Source: Candidatus Staskawiczbacteria bacterium RIFOXYC1_FULL_38_18
Lineage (GTDB): Bacteria > Patescibacteriota > Minisyncoccia > Minisyncoccales > Staskawiczbacteraceae
Length of the DNA stretch: 64,000 nucleotides
Assembly (NCBI GenBank): GCA_001822095.1
Contig: MHPP01000014.1
Coordinates: 1,662 to 65,661 of the forward strand
Reading direction: 5' to 3'
The notes below the pieces were generated by a model. That model made no database searches, had not been told where the DNA came from, and saw only the letters and a program-made list of their open reading frames with translations. Shown piece by piece: positions 5,558-40,713 of this stretch (position 1 is its first letter; the number at the start of each line of letters is the position of its first letter). The position numbers and the translations under genes are program-made.

Positions 5558-7090
5558 ATGAAAAACGCACAAAAAATATTAATCATATCAATTTTAACAA
5601 TATTAATTGCCGGGGGCTTTGTGTTGCCGACAGATGAAGCTGTCGCAAGCGTGTCTTGCGCCAACGGAACAACTCTGACTGCGCAGGAGCTTTACAATGC
5701 CGTATGGTCGGGGAAGTTAATAGCAACTTTTTCCGAACAGCCCGGCCAGGTGGTGGCAAGCGTAAATAATTTAACAGGTTGCACCGCGCCGGTGATCGGA
5801 GCGTCATACAAAATGTATAATGCCTATGGAACCCCAGGCTGGCTTGATACTCAGCAATATATAGGCTCGTCAGTCATGGTAAATATTAATGCCAACGGAA
5901 TAACCACCATAACTGTTCCAGTTGCGTCATGCAGAACTCAGGTTGATTTGTGGTATCAAGCTGCTCCTCAACAGCTTTATGATAGCGTGGATTATGGATC
6001 TTATCTTGACGCAAATTACGCGTTTGCCGCATATGCAACTCAAACCGCGCTTTGTACCGCCACCCCGGTTTGCACGCCTAGCTGGCAAACCGGAGCCTGG
6101 GGAGAGTGCATTAACGGATATCAGACAAGAACAGTAACTGACGCAAATGCTTGCGGAGTTGAAACCAGCAAGCCATCCACAACTCAATCTTGCGCGGTTG
6201 CGCCAGTAATAACTCCACCAGCTCAAACCCAAACTCAGACCCAAACCCAGGTAAACACTCAGACAGTATATGTAAACACAACAGGAGGTGGAAATAACAA
6301 TACTTGCTCAAACCACGCATACCAAAGATGCTCGGGTAGCAATTTGTATTGGTATGACTCGTGCGGAAACCAGCAAGAATATCAGTATTGCCCAAACGGG
6401 TGCTATAACAACGCGTGCCAAAATTATACAAACACCTACGGAAGCCTGACAATTAATAAGACTGTCAGAAATCTCGCTTCAGGCAGTACAAATTTTGCAA
6501 GTTCGGTTTATGCCAATCCGTTGGACACGCTTATGTTTATGATAACTCTGCAGGCAAACGGAAATCAGAATATGCAAAATGTTTTTGTAAGGGATTATTT
6601 CCCCGCCAACTTAATTTACCAGAACCAGCTTATAGTTTCAGGAGGAAGCAATTACTACAATAATAATTCAGGGAATATTGTTTCAGGGATTAATATAGGC
6701 ACAATATCAAGCGGTCAGACAGCTACAATAACCTATCAGGCGCAGGTTGCCTCCGCTCAAAATTTTGCCTATGGCGCGACAACATTGAATAACAGCGCCT
6801 CTGCAACAAGCTCGGTTGGAAGCACCCCAACAGCCTCTGCCTCTGTAATTGTTAATAGGGCGGCGGTTTATGGGGCAAGCGCCATTTCAACAGGCTTAAC
6901 AAATAATTTTTTGGTTGATTCCTTTTTCTTGCCATTAATGATTACCCTGCTTGGCATTTTGATGTTAAAATCAGGAATGTTTGCCGGAGCCGAGAAATGG
7001 TTCTATGCCAGAAAGAAAAATGGAAGAGAATTTAGAGCCAGCAGAGAATTAAGCAAGAAAATTTCGGAAATTAGAAAATTTGGAAGCTAA
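5558..7090 (+). CDS. Secreted Cys-rich surface protein with TQ-repeat linker and C-terminal membrane anchor
   Basis: A signal peptide is present. There are many paired cysteines, a TQTQTQTQ low-complexity linker, a beta-rich repeat region and a C-terminal hydrophobic helix plus basic tail. It lies immediately downstream of the sortase gene. Confidence 0.45.
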   Translation: MKNAQKILIISILTILIAGGFVLPTDEAVASVSCANGTTLTAQELYNAVWSGKLIATFSEQPGQVVASVNNLTGCTAPVIGASYKMYNAYGTPGWLDTQQYIGSSVMVNINANGITTITVPVASCRTQVDLWYQAAPQQLYDSVDYGSYLDANYAFAAYATQTALCTATPVCTPSWQTGAWGECINGYQTRTVTDANACGVETSKPSTTQSCAVAPVITPPAQTQTQTQTQVNTQTVYVNTTGGGNNNTCSNHAYQRCSGSNLYWYDSCGNQQEYQYCPNGCYNNACQNYTNTYGSLTINKTVRNLASGSTNFASSVYANPLDTLMFMITLQANGNQNMQNVFVRDYFPANLIYQNQLIVSGGSNYYNNNSGNIVSGINIGTISSGQTATITYQAQVASAQNFAYGATTLNNSASATSSVGSTPTASASVIVNRAAVYGASAISTGLTNNFLVDSFFLPLMITLLGILMLKSGMFAGAEKWFYARKKNGREFRASRELSKKISEIRKFGS

Positions 7091-8129: not shown

Positions 8130-9482
8130 TTAGTTTTCATTAGCATACTGACCTTTATCTAAATTTTTAAAACTTACTCTTTGCTTGTCAAAGAATAAAT
8201 CAACATATCCGGTAGCTCCATTTCTGTGTTTTTCAATTAGAATTTTTGCCATTCCCGGGTTTAGGCTGTTTTCATTATAGGCGTCTTCGCGGTAAATAAA
8301 CATAACCACATCAGCGTCTTGTTCAATTGCGCCAGATTCCCTTAAGTCTGACAATCTTGGAATTTGCGGAACGCGTGACTCAACAGCGCGGGATAATTGC
8401 GACAAAACCAAAACCGGCACGTTTAACTCCTTTGCCAAAATTTTTAAAGCCCTTGAGTTTTCGGAAACCTGCTGGACGGGCGAGGCGTATTTATTCATTG
8501 GCTGCATTAATTGCAAATAATCAATTACCAGTAAGGACAACCCTTTGTTTGCCTGCAGTCTGCGCGCCATTGCCCTCATTTGCAAAATATTTACAGAGCC
8601 GGCGTCATCAATATAAATAGGGGCTTCTGATAAAATTCCCATTGCATGCTGGATTCTTGAGTAGTCATCGTCCTTCAGATGCCCCGTCCTTAAATGCCAC
8701 GAATCAATGTTTGCCACGCTGGAAATCATCCTGTCGGCCAGCTGGTCTTTTGACATTTCTAAAGAAAACAATCCAACCGGCTGGTTTGTGCCAATAGCAA
8801 CATTTCTAGCAATATCCAAAGCCAGAGACGACTTGCCCATTGCCGGCCTTGCGGCTAAAATTATCAGGTCGGACTTTTGCAAACCCGCCAGCATATTGTC
8901 CAAATCCTTAAATCCTGTTGGGATTCCGCGCAAACCTCCGGACTGCTTTGAGAGCATGTCAAGCCTCTCAAATGTTTCGGGCAAGATGTCCTTTATGGGG
9001 GTGAAAGTTTGTGTTAATGCCCGTTGCCCAATTCCAAAAATTGTTTTTTCTGCCCTGTCAATTAAAACATCAACCTCTTCCTGTTCGTCGTCAAAAGCCG
9101 ATAAGCCAATTTCTTCAGAAGCTGAAATTAAGTCGCGTAAAATCTTTTTTTGGCGGACAATTTTTGCGTAATTTGAAACGTGAGTGGCTGTCGGTACGGT
9201 ATTTATAAGTGTTGTTAAATATGCCGAGCCTCCGGTTTCCTCCAGTCTTGTTTTTTCTTTTAATCTGGCGGAAACAGACAAAATATCAATTGGGTCGGAT
9301 CGTTCGTACAAATCAAACATTGCCTGGTAAATATCCTGATGTATGCCCTTATAAAAATCTTCTGCTTTTATAAAATCAACAATTTTTACAATAGCCTCCT
9401 TATCCAACATTAAGCAACCCAGCAAGCATTGTTCTGCTTCGGTATTTTGAGGGGGAAGTTTTACCGGCATTTCGTTGACCAT
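8130..9482 (-). CDS. dnaB: Replicative DNA helicase DnaB
   Basis: A Walker A motif (GARPAMGKSS) and DnaB-family blocks (DYLQLM, SQLSRAVE) are present. The length is 450 aa. No intein is present. Confidence 0.9.
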   Translation of the reverse strand: MVNEMPVKLPPQNTEAEQCLLGCLMLDKEAIVKIVDFIKAEDFYKGIHQDIYQAMFDLYERSDPIDILSVSARLKEKTRLEETGGSAYLTTLINTVPTATHVSNYAKIVRQKKILRDLISASEEIGLSAFDDEQEEVDVLIDRAEKTIFGIGQRALTQTFTPIKDILPETFERLDMLSKQSGGLRGIPTGFKDLDNMLAGLQKSDLIILAARPAMGKSSLALDIARNVAIGTNQPVGLFSLEMSKDQLADRMISSVANIDSWHLRTGHLKDDDYSRIQHAMGILSEAPIYIDDAGSVNILQMRAMARRLQANKGLSLLVIDYLQLMQPMNKYASPVQQVSENSRALKILAKELNVPVLVLSQLSRAVESRVPQIPRLSDLRESGAIEQDADVVMFIYREDAYNENSLNPGMAKILIEKHRNGATGYVDLFFDKQRVSFKNLDKGQYANEN

Positions 9483-9523
9483 ATTTCGTTAGTTTAGCAA
9501 AACCGAGAAAACAGAGCAAGGGC

Positions 9524-9552
9524 TTGACAATAAGATAGTATTATGATAGCAT
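9524..9552 (+). promoter_or_regulatory. sigma70-type promoter with extended upstream motif gcaagggcTTGACA
   Basis: TTGACA-17-TAGCAT. The 14-bp block gcaagggcttgaca is identical to the promoter at 10820-10856. Confidence 0.55.
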
Positions 9553-9686
9553 AATTTTAGTACGTTGATTGTGGTCGGACATCGGCTTTTTCGGGCTTTA
9601 GGGTAAAAATGGACAGATATAAATTTAACCAGCGACGTTATGTTCTGGTTCTGTCCCCCGTGTCCCTTTTCCCGAGGAGGTGTGCG

Positions 9687-9944
9687 ATGAGTTCTGACCG
9701 AACGCTGGTTGGCAGTGGATTCGACCTTTTCTTGGCCGGACTGGCTTGCGGAGGGATCTCCGACGTCCAAGTCTGTGCAAGGGAAGAAACGATCCATGAT
9801 GGATGCTATCCCGGTTGCGGAGACGGCAGCTGTTGCAGCCAATTGAGGATTGCCACCTTTAGGACCTCGTCTGGAAAGATTATGGTTCTGGAGGAATACC
9901 TCGACGAGGACAACAAGGTTCAACTGAGCTTTTACCCTCTTTGA
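9687..9944 (+). CDS. Small Cys-rich protein of unknown function, encoded in a GC-rich island
   Basis: A strong SD (GAGGAGGTG) lies 4 nt before the ATG. Third-position G/C bias runs through an 85-aa ORF (MSSDRTLVGSGFDLFLAGLACGG...CYPGCGDGSCCSQ...). A promoter lies upstream and a strong terminator downstream. Confidence 0.45.
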   Translation: MSSDRTLVGSGFDLFLAGLACGGISDVQVCAREETIHDGCYPGCGDGSCCSQLRIATFRTSSGKIMVLEEYLDEDNKVQLSFYPL

Positions 9945-10108
9945 GAGCAATTTTCAGCCAGCACAAAAAGAGCAACCCACTCTATAAAATGGGCAGTAAT
10001 TCTTCGGGGAAGTGCCGAAGCGCTGGAGACGGCGGACACATCTAAGGGAGATTAGGTTCTCCTTTTGTTTCACAAAATTTATTTTGCACTGAACTAGTCG
10101 TAATATTC

Positions 10109-10141
10109 AGACCAATTCGCGCGAATTGGTCTATTAATTTT
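10109..10141 (+). terminator. Rho-independent terminator (12-bp perfect stem)
   Basis: agaccaattcgc/gcgaattggtct is followed by a U-rich tract. Confidence 0.75.
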
Positions 10142-10170
10142 AAAGTATAAAAATAAGGTTACTAACAAAA

Positions 10171-10440
10171 TTACTGACAAAAAAGTTTAATGGCACGTTT
10201 TATATCGGTCGGCGCGTTTTTGTTTAAGCCATAAAATACATGTCCTTTTTTTCCGTTACTTTCCAAAAAATTTAGGTTGTGTAAAATTATTAAATGTTTT
10301 GATGTTGATTTTACGGCGATTTCTAATTCTTCGGCTATTTTTGTCACGCTCAAATTCGTTCCGCCAGAAAGCATTTTAATTATTTTAAGACGATTAATAT
10401 TCGCCATTGCTTTAAAAATATTAACCCATCGCTTATTCAT
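10171..10440 (-). CDS. ArsR/SmtB-family HTH transcriptional regulator
   Basis: The winged HTH signature NRLKIIKML...LSVTKIAEELEIAVKSTSKHL is present in an 89-aa protein. Confidence 0.7.
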   Translation of the reverse strand: MNKRWVNIFKAMANINRLKIIKMLSGGTNLSVTKIAEELEIAVKSTSKHLIILHNLNFLESNGKKGHVFYGLNKNAPTDIKRAIKLFCQ

Positions 10441-10450
10441 GTTTTATAAT

Positions 10451-10804
10451 TTAGCCTTTTGATAATAAAATAATTGCGACAAAAGCGAAAATAATTCCAA
10501 CAATACCTGTGAGGCTTAATTTTTCGTTGAAAAGCAAAACGCCAATTAAAATTGTGGTCAGCAGGCTAAAAACCGACCACAGGGTTCCAACAATTGAGAG
10601 CTGATTTTTTTGTAATATTGCGGGAAGCCATGCAAGCACACCGGCGGAGTAGGCGATTAAGATATAAATTACGTAAATAAATTTTGGGCTTAACGCAAAC
10701 CTTTTTGAGAGAAATTCACCAACTGCAAAAAATATTGCGGAAATAATAAGCCAAATAATGTAATTTATTGATGAAAAATTCATATTATTACTTAATTTTA
10801 GCAA
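10451..10804 (-). CDS. Small multidrug-resistance / DMT-superfamily (EamA-like) 4-TM transporter
   Basis: Four hydrophobic helices are present with a conserved membrane-embedded Glu (AVGEFLSKR). It is co-directional with, and adjacent to, the ArsR gene. Confidence 0.5.
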   Translation of the reverse strand: MLKLSNNMNFSSINYIIWLIISAIFFAVGEFLSKRFALSPKFIYVIYILIAYSAGVLAWLPAILQKNQLSIVGTLWSVFSLLTTILIGVLLFNEKLSLTGIVGIIFAFVAIILLSKG

Positions 10805-10827
10805 GTCCTATAAATCCCCGCAAGGGC

Positions 10828-10856
10828 TTGACACGAACACATAATAGTGCTATAAT
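10828..10856 (+). promoter_or_regulatory. Consensus sigma70 promoter TTGACA-17-TATAAT with gcaagggc upstream block
   Basis: A perfect -35/-10 with 17-nt spacer. It shares gcaagggcttgaca with the 9524 promoter. Confidence 0.7.
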
Positions 10857-10952
10857 AAATTATAGGCTAAATTAGCCTTTGCACATCAAAAAACACCGCG
10901 ACGTAGCGGTGCAAACACTAGTTTTAACTTTTTTTTAGAAGGGTCATTACCA

Positions 10953-11858
10953 ATGGCTTCCGCTACGATTGCCCACACCGACGTCTTCGCTATTCGCGAG
11001 TTCGTGGACACGGAGATGATGCACGCGTCCGACACACGTTTGGTCGATTTTTACCTCGCCCACGCGGAGGTGATTGAGGTGCTGGCCGAGGAGGGCGATG
11101 CTGACGCTCGGGCGTTCATCAAGACGGCCGAGCGGGCGCAGGATCGGCTCAACGAAGCCGCACAGGCCGAAGGGGTTAAGGAGCGACGTCAGCGCGAGAA
11201 CCGCCAAAAGTTGGCGGTGGTGCTGGAAGAAAACGGGTACACCGAGGCGTCGGCCATCATCAGCTTGCTCGGGGAGATTGTCGCCAACAAGGTGGCAGTT
11301 CCTGGGGCAAGGCAAACGCTCGGCGAAGCTCTGACGGCTGGTGGCGGAGGAATTTGGACTCGCGCCGGCTGGGCTGTCTATTACAAGACGCTTCGACCGA
11401 TTGCCGAGGCCGTCGAGATAGAGAGCGACCAGTCCGCGCAGGCTGAGCAAGACGCTCGGAATGCCCAGGAGGCGGAACAGAAGTCCGCCACCGAAGAAAA
11501 GGCACTCTTCCTTCTCGGGTTCTTGCTCCGGGCCCTTTCGGCGGTCAGCAATGACTCGCTGGCAAATGACGGCATCCGGGGTGCAGAAATTGCCCTGGAA
11601 CGATCGAAGCCAGCCAGGGAGTGGAGCTGGTGGTTGCTCTCCGCAGTGGATCGGCTTATTGCCAGGGGCGAGCTCGTCCCCTGGGACGAGCAGAGCCAAA
11701 AGGCCGAGGGATTCATTGCTCGACTTCAGAGTGAAGTTGAGAAGGGGATTAATCTGCACCGCGCCGCCAATAATCAGCGCAAGCTGGAAAAGCAAGCTCG
11801 GCAGGCTGCTAATCGTGCCTCGCGCAATGGCTCCTGCAAGAGCGGAAAGAAAAAATAG
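10953..11858 (+). CDS. Hypothetical Ala/Glu-rich helical protein encoded by a GC-rich (foreign-looking) gene
   Basis: The 301-aa ORF has clear high-GC codon usage (GAG/GCC/CTG/CGG, GC3 dominated) inside an AT-rich genome. A promoter lies upstream and a terminator downstream. There is no recognisable domain. Confidence 0.5.
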   Translation: MASATIAHTDVFAIREFVDTEMMHASDTRLVDFYLAHAEVIEVLAEEGDADARAFIKTAERAQDRLNEAAQAEGVKERRQRENRQKLAVVLEENGYTEASAIISLLGEIVANKVAVPGARQTLGEALTAGGGGIWTRAGWAVYYKTLRPIAEAVEIESDQSAQAEQDARNAQEAEQKSATEEKALFLLGFLLRALSAVSNDSLANDGIRGAEIALERSKPAREWSWWLLSAVDRLIARGELVPWDEQSQKAEGFIARLQSEVEKGINLHRAANNQRKLEKQARQAANRASRNGSCKSGKKK

Positions 11859-11881
11859 CGGAGACCCGTTCTCCGCCAGTC

Positions 11882-11925
11882 CCTCCTTCGCGAATTAACT
11901 TTCGCGGGGGAGGGAATTTTTTTAT
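11882..11925 (+). terminator. Rho-independent terminator, likely bidirectional (shared with convergent cysS)
   Basis: The GC-rich hairpin ccctccttcgcg...cgcgggggaggg is followed by TTTTTTT. Confidence 0.6.
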
Positions 11926-13316
11926 ATTTTCTTAATAGTAGCGCCGAATTTTGTGTCCTCAATCATATAGCCCTGTTTTTCAAGTTCCTTGCGAATTTCG
12001 TCGGATTTTTGCCAGTTTTGATTTCTTCTAGCTGTTTCTCTTTCCTTCAAAAGTTTTTTAATTTTAGCGGGGACTGTCAGACTTATTTTTTTAAAATCAA
12101 TAATCCCAAAAATTTTATTTATTTCCTCAAAAAACTTATAGATTTTGGTTGATTCTTTTTTGGAGATTTTTTCCTCATCTAAGAGCTGGTTTGCTTTTTT
12201 AATAAATTCAAACATAACCGCAAAGGCTTTTGGGGTGTTAAAATCATCGTCAAGCTCTTTATAGAAATTTACTTTAAAATTCTTAATCAGGTTTTTTATT
12301 TTTTTTGCTCCCCTTATTGTTTTTACTAATTTAATTCTTCGCAGAAACTCTTCAATTTTGGAGACAGCAGACTTAACTTCAATCATTGCGGATTCGGAAT
12401 AATCCATTGGCGAAGACCATAAATTTTTAGAAACATAAAATCTCAAATAATTTGCAGGGCATCTTTTTAAGAAATCACTTATGGTAATAAAATTTCCTGA
12501 AGACTTGGACATTTTTTGTCCGCCCACAGTTAAAAACCCCACATGCATCCAATATTTTACCAGCGGGCTCTTGCCTGAAATAGCCTCCATTTGGCTTATC
12601 TCCGCTTCGTGGTGGGGGAATATTAAGTCTCTGGCGCCTCCATGGACATCATATTGCGGGCCAAAAAACCTCTCTGTTATAGCGGTGTCCTCAATGTGCC
12701 AGCCTGGGCGCCCTTGACCAAGGGAAGAAGCCCAGCTTGGTTCTAATCCTTCCTGCTTAAACTTCCACAAACAAAAATCGCCCCGGTTTCTTTTATTTTT
12801 GCTGTAATCAATTCGCGAAACGGCGTCTTCAGCGGCCAAAGCCGTACGTCCGGAAAGTTTACCATATTTTTTAAATTTTGAAATATCAAAGTAAATTCCG
12901 TCCTCGGCAATTTCATAGGCAAAACCTTTTTCTTGAAGCCTTTTTATTTGACTTATTATTTCCTTAATATAGCTTGTAGCCTTGGCATATTTTGAAACGC
13001 TTGTAATTCCAAGATTTTTCATATCTTTTAAATATTCATTTTCAAAAGCCACTGCCAGATCCTTTGGACTAACGCCCCTTTCTCGCGAACGCGCAATTAT
13101 CTTGTCATCCAAATCTGTTACGTTTTGCAGATAAAAAACCTTAAAGCCAATATGTTTTAAATATTTTACAAAAATATCAAAAACAATATAATTTCTGGCG
13201 TGCCCCAAATGAGAATAGTCGTAAACCGTCGGGCCGCAGACGAACAGATTTATTTTTTTACCGCCAACAGGCTTTATTAGGTCTTTTTTTCCGGTTAAAG
13301 TATTAAATATTTTCAT
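11922..13316 (-). CDS. cysS: Cysteinyl-tRNA synthetase
   Basis: HIGH motif (HLGHARNY) and KMSKS motif, with CysRS-specific blocks. Confidence 0.9.
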   Translation of the reverse strand: MKIFNTLTGKKDLIKPVGGKKINLFVCGPTVYDYSHLGHARNYIVFDIFVKYLKHIGFKVFYLQNVTDLDDKIIARSRERGVSPKDLAVAFENEYLKDMKNLGITSVSKYAKATSYIKEIISQIKRLQEKGFAYEIAEDGIYFDISKFKKYGKLSGRTALAAEDAVSRIDYSKNKRNRGDFCLWKFKQEGLEPSWASSLGQGRPGWHIEDTAITERFFGPQYDVHGGARDLIFPHHEAEISQMEAISGKSPLVKYWMHVGFLTVGGQKMSKSSGNFITISDFLKRCPANYLRFYVSKNLWSSPMDYSESAMIEVKSAVSKIEEFLRRIKLVKTIRGAKKIKNLIKNFKVNFYKELDDDFNTPKAFAVMFEFIKKANQLLDEEKISKKESTKIYKFFEEINKIFGIIDFKKISLTVPAKIKKLLKERETARRNQNWQKSDEIRKELEKQGYMIEDTKFGATIKKI

Positions 13317-40135: not shown

Positions 40136-40392
40136 AAGTAAAAATCCATTTAGCCCTTTTAGCAAGGGTTTTTTGGTTATATTGATTTTTAGCAATTTTG
40201 GCGGTAAGATTAAAATAATTTAATATTGGTTGCCTAACCCTTAAAATTTATTTTAAGGTATGGCAAAAAGTCGTTGTGCATATCAAACCCGTCATTCGGG
40301 GGTGTGCACAACGCTATACAGGGAAACTTGTATATGGGTCGCAAGACTCACCCCAGTGGCGGGTTTTATGTTGTGCCACAATTATTAAAAAT

Positions 40393-40713
40393 ATGGAAAA
40401 TCAAACAGAAGAAACAAAAAGTAGTTTTTTTGAACATTGGAAGCGTTCAGTTTTAGTAATTGTAGGATTTGTAGCTATCTGCATATTTATTGGAAGCCTG
40501 CACTTATCCTCTGAACAAAGCGGGGCATTGGTGATAGCAATACCGTTATGTTTATTTTTATACTTCTTACCAGCATATATCGCTTTCAAAAAAGAAAAGA
40601 AAAATAAGGTTGCTATTTTTGCACTAAATTTGTTTTTAGGATGGACACTTATTGGCTGGATTGTTGCACTGGTTTGGAGCTTAACTTATGAAGAAAGAAA
40701 AAATATAAATTGA
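40393..40713 (+). CDS. Superinfection immunity (Imm_superinfect-like) membrane protein
   Basis: YFLPAYIAFKKEKKNKVAIFALNLFLGWTLIGWIVALVWSL matches the phage superinfection-immunity family pattern. The ORF track starts it at 40276; Met 40393 is preferred. Confidence 0.55.
   Translation: MENQTEETKSSFFEHWKRSVLVIVGFVAICIFIGSLHLSSEQSGALVIAIPLCLFLYFLPAYIAFKKEKKNKVAIFALNLFLGWTLIGWIVALVWSLTYEERKNIN

Follow-up and report, generated by a model that had tools for sequence, protein, structure and literature searches.

A probable post-transcriptionally gated small-gene cassette with a new, apparently portable 3′ RNA domain in Candidatus Staskawiczbacteria

Among known bacterial systems, the closest analogy to the locus described here would be the inert, structured toxin mRNAs of type I toxin–antitoxin (TA) systems (hok/sok, tisB/istR-1, dinQ/agrB and aapA1/isoA1). 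In these systems a small open reading frame (ORF) is expressed from its own strong promoter as a stable, structured mRNA, the Shine–Dalgarno (SD) sequence and start codon are sequestered by the 5′ part of the transcript, activation is expected through processing or refolding, and the unit is cassette-like with a patchy distribution. We describe a unit of similar layout, with predicted rather than demonstrated sequestration, in a 64,000-nucleotide stretch (the window) of the genome of Candidatus Staskawiczbacteria bacterium RIFOXYC1_FULL_38_18, a member of the Parcubacteria within the candidate phyla radiation (CPR). It is built around an 85-codon ORF at positions 9687–9944 of the + strand, and we think it probable that it represents an autonomous small-gene cassette, post-transcriptionally gated and equipped with a new portable 3′ RNA domain. 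Within one transcript, two conserved RNA structures flank an orphan ORF; the 3′ structure is more tightly constrained than the protein and recurs behind unrelated ORFs.

In the small genomes of CPR bacteria (Patescibacteria), few of the lineage-specific genes and hardly any regulatory RNAs have been characterized. If the interpretation holds, the unit shows a way in which small genes that are swappable and strongly transcribed stay silent in these organisms until they are needed, and it adds a structured RNA family absent from Rfam 15. The known distribution is very narrow: about a dozen loci, from a few lineages of Parcubacteria.

The start of the unit is defined by the following features.

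9524–9552 (+): promoter-like site with TTGACA at 9524–9529, a 17-nt spacer and a TG-extended TAGCAT at 9547–9552 (10/12 match)
9559–9686 (+): 5′ leader of ~127 nt, predicted to fold as a structured RNA that pairs with its own translation-initiation region (TIR)
9674–9682 (+): SD sequence GAGGAGGTG (that is, GAGGAGGUG), with a GGAGG-to-ATG gap of 6 nt
9687–9944 (+): coding sequence (CDS) of an orphan small protein of 85 amino acids, with a C-terminal conserved core QLRIATFR-TSSGK-IMVLEEYL-DEDNK-VQLSFY

The −35 box, spacing and −10 box are conserved across homologous loci. An initial annotation of this region had reported the 85-amino-acid ORF, a near-ideal SD and a leader of about 125 nt, all of which are present; measured from the predicted, promoter-based transcription start, the leader is ~127 nt long. 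The SD is kept in the loci of the same ORF family (family 1) except L042, which has GAAGGAGG, and L044, an error-prone contig of low coverage. We place the start at 9687 because an in-frame ATG at 9609, which would give a 111-amino-acid ORF, lies within a leader hairpin, lacks an SD and is not conserved. The sequence context upstream of the promoter, CAAGGGCTTGACA, recurs at the promoter of a second GC-rich unit at 10828. Related genomes have further strong promoters of the TTGACA...TATGAT...TAGTAC type beside or downstream of the unit, which drive short non-coding transcripts; these include an unassigned RNA of ~90 nt with a terminator and a tRNA-Ser(UGA) in L001 (1735–1880 and 1907–1981) and a tRNA-like sequence with a CCA end in L168 (3580–3820). 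A promoter of this kind followed by an initial transcribed TAGTAC seems to be how strong promoters are generally built in these genomes.

Downstream of the ORF, the conserved 3′ untranslated region (UTR) extends for ~120 nt, and at 9964–10067 it comprises a pseudoknotted element followed by a terminator.

9964–9968 (+): A-run at the 5′ end of the 3′ element
9969–9993 (+): H-type pseudoknot; stem S1 pairs AGAG (9969–9972) with CUCU (9980–9983), stem S2 pairs CCCA (9976–9979) with UGGG (9990–9993), and the connecting loop AUAAAA is A-rich
9996–10000 (+): conserved junction GUAAU
10002–10020 (+): hairpin P3, CUUCGG (10002–10007), loop GGAAGUG and CCGAAG (10015–10020)
10021–10034 (+): hairpin P4, CGCUG (10021–10025), GNRA loop GAGA and CGGCG (10030–10034)
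10035–10045 (+): near-invariant single-stranded tail GACACAUCUAA between P4 and the terminator
10046–10067 (+): intrinsic terminator of the unit, GGGAGA, loop UUAGGU, UCUCC and a U-run (UUUU)

The suggestion that the 3′ UTR is structured is borne out by comparison of relatives. In an alignment made by hand to fit the structure (alignment A8; ten distinct loci, several of them closely related), 98.6% of cells pair, against 37–46% when the partners are slid. Both partners differ in six pairs, of which two lie in S2, three in P3 and one in an inserted hairpin; none of 500 shuffles reached that count. S2 occurs as CCCA:UGGG, UCCA:UGGA and CCCG(A):(U)CGGG; of the six P3 pairs, three have both partners changed, and four pair types occur at one position. 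The terminator stem also varies among homologues in a compensatory way that retains pairing. RNAalifold recovered P3, P4 and the terminator independently from an unguided MAFFT alignment. The G–U pairs in L042, L043 and L168 fit the + strand only, so the folded strand is that of the ORF. Some relatives have an extra GAAA-capped hairpin, which is placed before GUAAU in L036 and L043 and after it in L010 and L042. Identity in the core is 79–91% over all pairs of loci, whereas the attached ORFs either show a synonymous divergence of 0.33–0.76 or are unrelated, and this level of identity is kept between transcripts with saturated synonymous sites (divergence 0.6–0.76); the element is thus better conserved than the protein or its CDS. 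On this comparative evidence, the 3′ element is a new structured RNA motif under strong constraint, with compensatory changes.

The element has no match among described RNAs. Rfam 15 gave no hit at gathering thresholds to the leader, the ORF or the 3′ element, and a permissive search (E ≤ 10) of the window, the isolated element and the homologous loci returned nothing relevant that overlaps any of the three; an Rfam search of the leader, which the initial annotation had proposed, therefore yields no match. A tRNA and tmRNA search found no tmRNA-like feature, and we found no description of the 3′ motif in the literature on structured RNAs of CPR bacteria. A covariance model detects exactly one copy per locus and a single copy in the window; besides these it gave two weak hits, of 20 and 14 bits, that seem to reflect the terminator. 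When genome, metagenome and viral collections were scanned for exact patterns, which required 18–19 specified bases of the P4 and tail stretch and so would let diverged copies escape, the element turned up only in these loci. In IMG/VR the pattern gave only chance matches in GC-rich phages. We also considered pseudoknot-stimulated recoding (readthrough or frameshifting) and rejected it: the distance to the stop codon is not fixed (14–24 nt), and AAAAAG follows the stop.

Could the 3′ element itself be the main product, as a 3′-UTR-derived small RNA (sRNA), a ribonucleoprotein scaffold, or a ligand-sensing or self-cleaving RNA, with the ORF a mere carrier? Its conservation relative to the CDS, its presence behind unrelated ORFs and its intact state in L036 and L044, where the ORFs are disrupted, would all fit, as would traits of a globular RNA (the pseudoknot with its A-rich loop, the GNRA loops and the optional GAAA-capped hairpins at two sites). 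We nevertheless consider this quite unlikely. The element always lies 14–24 nt past a stop codon and has no promoter of its own, L041 retains the ORF and terminator without it, no known ribozyme or riboswitch model matched, and inspection by eye revealed no obvious complementarity to other regions, including no conserved complementarity of the invariant tail or the loops with the leader.

At the other end of the transcript, the GC-rich leader had been proposed as a possible cis-regulatory RNA. Its predicted fold in the window has the following parts.

9572–9595 (+): anti-TIR strand, predicted to pair with the TIR
9572–9579 with 9693–9700 (+): predicted anti-TIR helix UGGUCGGA:UCUGACCG, involving codons 2–5
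9580–9584 with 9685–9689 (+): predicted anti-TIR helix CAUCG:CGAUG, including the AUG
9585–9595 with 9671–9681 (+): predicted anti-SD helix GCUUUUUCGGG:CCCGAGGAGGU, including the SD
9600–9667 (+): leader core, opened by a G-run:C-run helix (9600–9603 with 9664–9667)
9611–9617 with 9650–9656 (+): stem La of the core, GGACAGA:UCUGUCC
9628–9632 with 9645–9649 (+): hairpin Lc of the core, ACCAG:CUGGU

We aligned the leaders of nine family-1 loci and folded eight, leaving out the low-coverage contig L044. The leaders are only ~60% identical overall, and all eight, folded independently by minimum free energy (MFE), share one architecture: nucleotides ~13–40 pair in succession with codons 2–6, the AUG and the SD (the last through a pyrimidine tract), followed by one or two G-run:C-run helices and a three-way junction closed by La with arms Lb and Lc. 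The window leader lacks Lb, which is present in all eight other aligned leaders. The partners in the TIR helices change together with the coding sequence (GUGGUCG:CGAUCAC in L042, UACGAC:GUCGUA in L043 and GUGAUU:GAUCAC in L004), and the equivalent helix in L041 lies before the AUG (AUGG:CCAU). Both sides of La are changed among relatives (GGACAG:CUGUCC, GGAAC:GUUCC and CAGGGAA:UUCCCUG). The leader has an MFE of −54 kcal/mol, compared with −38.5 kcal/mol for shuffled upstream sequence, and the whole transcript is very stably folded (z = −4.4). SD sequestration taken as a stand-alone statistic was dropped, as it is not significant against shuffled upstream sequence; because SD-pairing probability is high even in shuffles, the case for the leader rests on the shared architecture, the covariation and the low MFE. 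The leader is thus plausibly a conserved, structured cis-regulatory RNA, in line with the earlier suggestion, and the predicted folds suggest that the mRNA is born translationally closed, with translation gated by the leader. The gene can therefore be called strongly expressed at the level of transcription only, where its signals are strong; its TIR, by contrast, is predicted to be base-paired in every homologue. A perfect SD and a strong promoter need not mean a high protein output.

An inert, structured mRNA raises the question of a type I TA-like module, in which the ORF would be toxic or growth-arresting, the mRNA would be kept inert by its 5′ fold (as in hok, tisB, dinQ and aapA1) until activated by processing, and the 3′ domain would serve stability or act as the antitoxin target. 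Much of the evidence could be read in this way: the strong promoter, the TIR predicted to be fully occluded in all homologues, the very stable transcript fold, the alternative cassettes at one locus and variable genomic neighbours, a very narrow, patchy distribution, the existence of disrupted copies, and a base composition foreign to the genome. The window has a G+C content of 38.8% overall, compared with 52–58% in the region of the unit, and G+C at third codon positions is 0.59 in the ORF against 0.34–0.42 in housekeeping genes. We do not file the unit as a type I TA system because we see no antitoxin RNA and because the encoded protein is no membrane peptide. There is no minus-strand promoter-like site between 9300 and 12100, and the 3′ element folds on the ORF strand, as its G–U pairs indicate; a divergent or trans-encoded sRNA may nevertheless exist. 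The protein has a brief hydrophobic helix (residues 11–21) in the short form only and none in the long form, PADLOC gave no hit, and dN/dS values indicate ordinary purifying selection. We regard the TA explanation as unlikely and prefer the gated cassette.

Evidence that the unit is modular comes from the ORFs found in front of the 3′ element. The same element lies behind a second ORF family (family 2; 160–174 amino acids) in L010, from a Staskawiczbacteria metagenome-assembled genome (MAG), and in L168/L169, and it follows a partial ORF in L039 that is related to family 2. Family 2 is under purifying selection (dN/dS 0.35), and homology between the two families was rejected (hhalign probability 0.06%). 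The family-2 leader is shorter and contains a CCUCCAU that can base-pair with the AUGGAG found at the start. The converse case is L041, where a long-form family-1 ORF and the terminator occur without the remainder of the 3′ element. Upstream of the cassette, L043 (family 1, long form) and L010 (family 2) are near-identical, sharing the 5′ end of an SMR gene, the intergenic region and the promoter up to the −10 box, and they also share the 3′ element, whereas the leader and ORF between these borders are unrelated. In the window, the orthologous SMR-adjacent promoter is occupied by the second GC-rich unit.

10828–11915 (+): second GC-rich unit, 62% G+C against 39% for the genome, without the 3′ element
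10828–10856 (+): promoter of the second unit, a perfect TTGACA-17-TATAAT in the shared upstream context, followed by two leader hairpins
10953–11858 (+): ORF of 301 amino acids, rich in Ala, Glu and Arg (hypothetical protein OGZ84626.1), with no family match
11880–11915 (+): terminator of the second unit, 15 bp, after the 301-amino-acid ORF

Because the second unit of the window, the family-2 cassette of L010 and the family-1 cassette of L043 use this orthologous promoter, one locus holds three alternative cassettes in related genomes. The sequence comparisons thus indicate that leader and ORF are exchanged like a cassette between a constant promoter and 3′ domain. The genes around the cassettes are also rearranged from one related genome to another: L010 (1–2800) reads SMR, cassette, DnaB and CysS, and the window (8130–13316) reads DnaB, cassette 1, ArsR, SMR, cassette 2 and CysS. 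In homologous loci, the neighbours of the unit are ThrRS, DnaE, CysS, NYN or HAD genes, and the units may mark recombination-prone sites.

Such exchange could also be explained if the 3′ element were a border for recombination at the DNA level, either attC-like or as a homology arm. Alternative cassettes do lie between a conserved promoter and a conserved element at one locus, the element variants are shuffled relative to the ORF families, and an ACCCAAC just upstream of the element in long-form loci fits the attC R″ consensus, RYYYAAC. This motif is absent from short-form and family-2 loci, however, no integrase or recombinase gene adjoins any locus, and each cassette carries its own promoter, which integron cassettes do not. 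The compensatory changes and G–U pairs point to selection on an RNA folded from one strand, and we consider a DNA border very unlikely as an account of the element.

The ORF is conserved, and its substitutions have the pattern expected of a gene. Against L001, the closest diverged copy (87% amino acid identity), there are 30 substitutions, distributed 6/4/20 over codon positions 1/2/3, with 16 synonymous and 11 non-synonymous codon changes. Nei–Gojobori dN/dS is 0.135 in this comparison and 0.18–0.45 among long-form members. Because of this conservation, the third-position bias and a dN/dS of ~0.13–0.45, we call the ORF coding, as had been annotated; by its substitution pattern it is a real protein-coding gene under purifying selection. 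The check by which the initial annotation would have given up the coding call, a lack of ORF conservation or of periodic codon bias, thus came out in favour of coding. It would otherwise be tempting to regard the whole 500-nt transcript as a non-coding structured RNA and the ORF as spurious, given a GC-rich region in an AT-rich genome with ORFs on both strands, the strong transcript folding and occluded TIR, and broken ORFs in three relatives. That explanation is highly improbable: dN/dS is well below 1 in every pair, protein motifs persist where the DNA is saturated, the SD and the ATG are retained, and an ORF of 85–126 amino acids is kept in most loci.

The encoded protein belongs to a tiny orphan family, gathered by phmmer and profile searches of protein databases, which contain very few relatives (~9 distinct loci). 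The exact product is already recorded as a hypothetical protein (OGZ84623.1/OGZ92332.1) in Candidatus Staskawiczbacteria MAGs, and contig MHPX01000003.1 of GCA_001822165.1 encodes it in a gene order identical to that of the window. A short form of 85 amino acids (the window protein, P0002 and P0003) and a long form of 113–133 amino acids (P0006 to P0009) share a C-terminal consensus, [QR]LRIA[TVI]F[RK]..S...M[VL].EE[YW]L...D....V[QK]L[SA].Y. The conserved part is the C-terminal 35 amino acids, predicted to form the β-strands of a β-meander. An AlphaFold2 model of moderate confidence, based on a seven-sequence alignment, has one helix and five predicted strands (pLDDT 71.5, pTM 0.57), and a Foldseek search with it against PDB and BFVD gave no meaningful match (best E 0.03–0.14, TM-score ≤ 0.46); the model of a long-form member (pLDDT 52.6) is too poor for a structure search. 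Pfam, NCBIfam, PHROGs and PADLOC gave no match for the 85-amino-acid protein, the long forms, the family-2 ORF or the 301-amino-acid ORF, nor did the 85-amino-acid protein match PDB sequences or, by tblastn, phage genomes. A phmmer match to P0004, an FG-GAP/VCBS-like repeat protein (E = 3 × 10⁻⁴), was set aside as compositional, since it depends on a YPGKGDGS-like repeat. These predictions suggest an orphan, β-rich cytoplasmic protein.

The initial annotation had instead read the protein as Cys-rich and as metal-binding or metallothionein-like, controlled by the convergent ArsR/SmtB gene, or else as the precursor of a ribosomally synthesized and post-translationally modified peptide (RiPP). 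The window protein does have Cys residues, including CxxxC and CC, but they number six rather than eight (one in LACGG, one in VCARE and four in DGCYPGCGDGSCCS). The family alignment contains no invariant Cys column; P0008 contains just one Cys, and L001 has Ser in place of Cys30. The Cys-richness of one sequence need not mean metal binding. The convergent neighbour is indeed an ArsR-family gene, and it lies in the following setting.

10109–10132: 24-nt perfect palindrome AGACCAATTCGC/GCGAATTGGTCT between the unit and the convergent arsR, 165 nt past the stop codon
10171–10440 (−): ArsR-family helix–turn–helix (HTH) gene, 89 amino acids, convergent to the 85-codon ORF (Pfam HTH_5, E = 1.9 × 10⁻⁸)
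10451–10804 (−): gene for an SMR/EamA-like transporter with four transmembrane segments, 10 nt ahead of arsR on the same strand

Regulators of the SmtB/CadC kind carry α3(N) Cys or α5 Asp/His/Glu metal ligands. Read directly, the 89-amino-acid ArsR protein has neither an α3 Cys nor the α5 ligands, no DxHx10HxxE motif, and a sole Cys at residue 88; it scores 51.2 on the NCBIfam metalloregulator model, below the cut-off of 55, and its gene follows the SMR-type gene, on the strand opposite to the unit. No ArsR gene lies beside the unit at the nine homologous loci examined, several of them on short contigs, an absence that holds for the flanks recovered (L001, L004, L034, L036, L041, L042, L043 and L044 among them). 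For a RiPP, no radical S-adenosylmethionine enzyme, cyclodehydratase, lanthipeptide or peptidase gene, or other modifying-enzyme gene, flanks the unit in the recovered contigs, where the called neighbours have housekeeping roles (DnaB, ThrRS, CysS, DnaE, HAD and NYN), and a conserved C-terminal β-meander in a protein with a folded, β-rich AlphaFold2 prediction does not have a leader/core layout. Despite the six Cys residues and the ArsR-family neighbour, a metal-binding or RiPP function is therefore the least probable explanation that we weighed. The earlier observation is largely real; its metal, ArsR and RiPP reading is not supported, and its UTR part was right and more interesting than proposed.

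The order of transporter gene first and minimal ArsR-family HTH regulator second (10171–10804, −) is unusual. The palindrome corresponds to the terminator with a 12-bp stem that had been placed about 160 nt downstream of the ORF. It exists, although by scan count it has 10 bp and a 4-nt loop, with no clean U-run after either strand; it is not kept in homologous loci, and the nearer, conserved terminator at 10046–10067, present even in L041, had been missed. Lying between the unit and arsR, the palindrome may provide back-up or bidirectional termination. The DnaB protein encoded beside the unit is 76% identical to that of another Staskawiczbacteria MAG. Elsewhere in the window, a LOOT RNA lies at 40231–40350 (+; Rfam RF03000, 87 bits, E = 4 × 10⁻¹⁵) and overlaps the start of a listed GTG ORF (40276–40713). 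A 510-amino-acid ORF at 5558–7090 (+), considered from the ORF list only, has a signal-like segment at its N terminus, many Cys residues, a (TQ)n run, repeats rich in Asn and Tyr and, at its C terminus, a hydrophobic anchor with basic residues behind it; it is probably a surface protein.

We propose the following model for the unit. A strong σ70-type promoter would drive a transcript of ~500 nt in three parts. The 5′ portion of the leader would pair with the SD, AUG and codons 2–6 around a multi-stem core, so that the mRNA is made closed; something would then have to open it, for instance 5′ processing, a trans-acting factor or changed conditions. Once opened, the 85-codon ORF would yield the orphan β-rich cytoplasmic protein. 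The third part would be a 3′ domain of ~85 nt followed by the terminator. This domain would most likely determine what becomes of the locked mRNA, serving as a platform for binding or stability either in cis or once processed. It may thus act on mRNA stability, processing or factor binding, or may be released as an RNA product. Promoter and 3′ domain would form the constant frame, with leader and ORF exchangeable between them. A further, more tentative possibility is that the 3′ element is a new folded functional RNA class, which might, for example, bind a factor or ligand, block exonucleases or act as a ribozyme. It would give the exchangeable, translationally locked small-ORF cassettes of CPR bacteria a portable 3′ module and so form a post-transcriptional ‘expression frame’ without a described bacterial counterpart.

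Several observations weigh against this model. In the 3′ element, the S1 and P4 stems are invariant (P4 including its U–G pair, with only the N of the GNRA loop varying between GAGA, GCGA and GGGA), and covariation support is confined to S2, P3 and the inserted hairpin. The high identity of the 3′ UTR could come in part from recent recombination or gene conversion and not from selection alone. Element variants (the pseudoknot type and the inserted hairpins) do not track the ORF families, which points to recombination among units. In the leader, the SD-pairing probability is no better than in shuffled upstream sequence (mean ~0.7), and only three of the eight leaders beat 95% of shuffles. Finally, the ORF is disrupted in three relatives that retain the UTR structures: L003 has a 29-nt deletion that removes the ATG (~790–800, aligned to window positions 9684–9712) and differs in nothing else, the frame of L036 is shifted by 1 nt after codon 10 (~420–450), and L044 (879–1240) has several indels on a contig with a coverage of only 0.63×. 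These broken ORFs may be assembly errors, or may reflect real decay or a dispensable protein.

Among known systems, the unit departs from type I TA mRNAs in that no gene for an antisense or trans-acting antitoxin RNA could be detected and that the protein, at 85–133 amino acids, looks soluble and β-rich rather than like a short membrane peptide. In addition, the predicted lock is local, between leader and TIR, and does not involve an interaction of the 5′ and 3′ ends, and the conserved pseudoknotted 3′ domain has no counterpart in those transcripts. In the smtA–smtB metallothionein system, a small Cys-containing ORF likewise adjoins an ArsR-family gene. There, the genes diverge from a shared operator region, whereas here they are convergent, the Cys residues are unconserved, and the ArsR protein lacks metal ligands, belongs with the SMR gene and has no equivalent beside the unit at the homologous loci examined.

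The 3′ domain resembles three groups of RNA or DNA elements. Like 3′-UTR-derived sRNAs and dual-function RNAs (CpxQ, SdhX and DapZ; RNAIII/hld and SgrS/SgrT), the unit joins a small ORF to a better-conserved RNA domain by the terminator. That domain is a compact folded module with a pseudoknot and GNRA hairpins, however, rather than a short single-stranded seed, and it is common to unrelated ORFs, with no target complementarity identified by eye. The pseudoknot itself recalls the H-type aptamers of preQ1-I and SAM-II/SAM-V riboswitches in its short AGAG/CUCU stem, the pairing of its loop with a downstream segment after an A-rich linker, the preceding A-run and the similar size. It differs from them in giving no Rfam hit as an isolated element at E ≤ 10, in lying in a 3′ UTR without a downstream gene to regulate, and in carrying two more conserved hairpins and an invariant tail. 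Integron attC cassettes, in turn, are exchangeable ORFs that each have a conserved structured 3′ element of ~60–140 nt. The units described here differ in that no integrase was called in any locus, each cassette brings its own promoter and leader, and selection is visible on the RNA folded from the coding strand.

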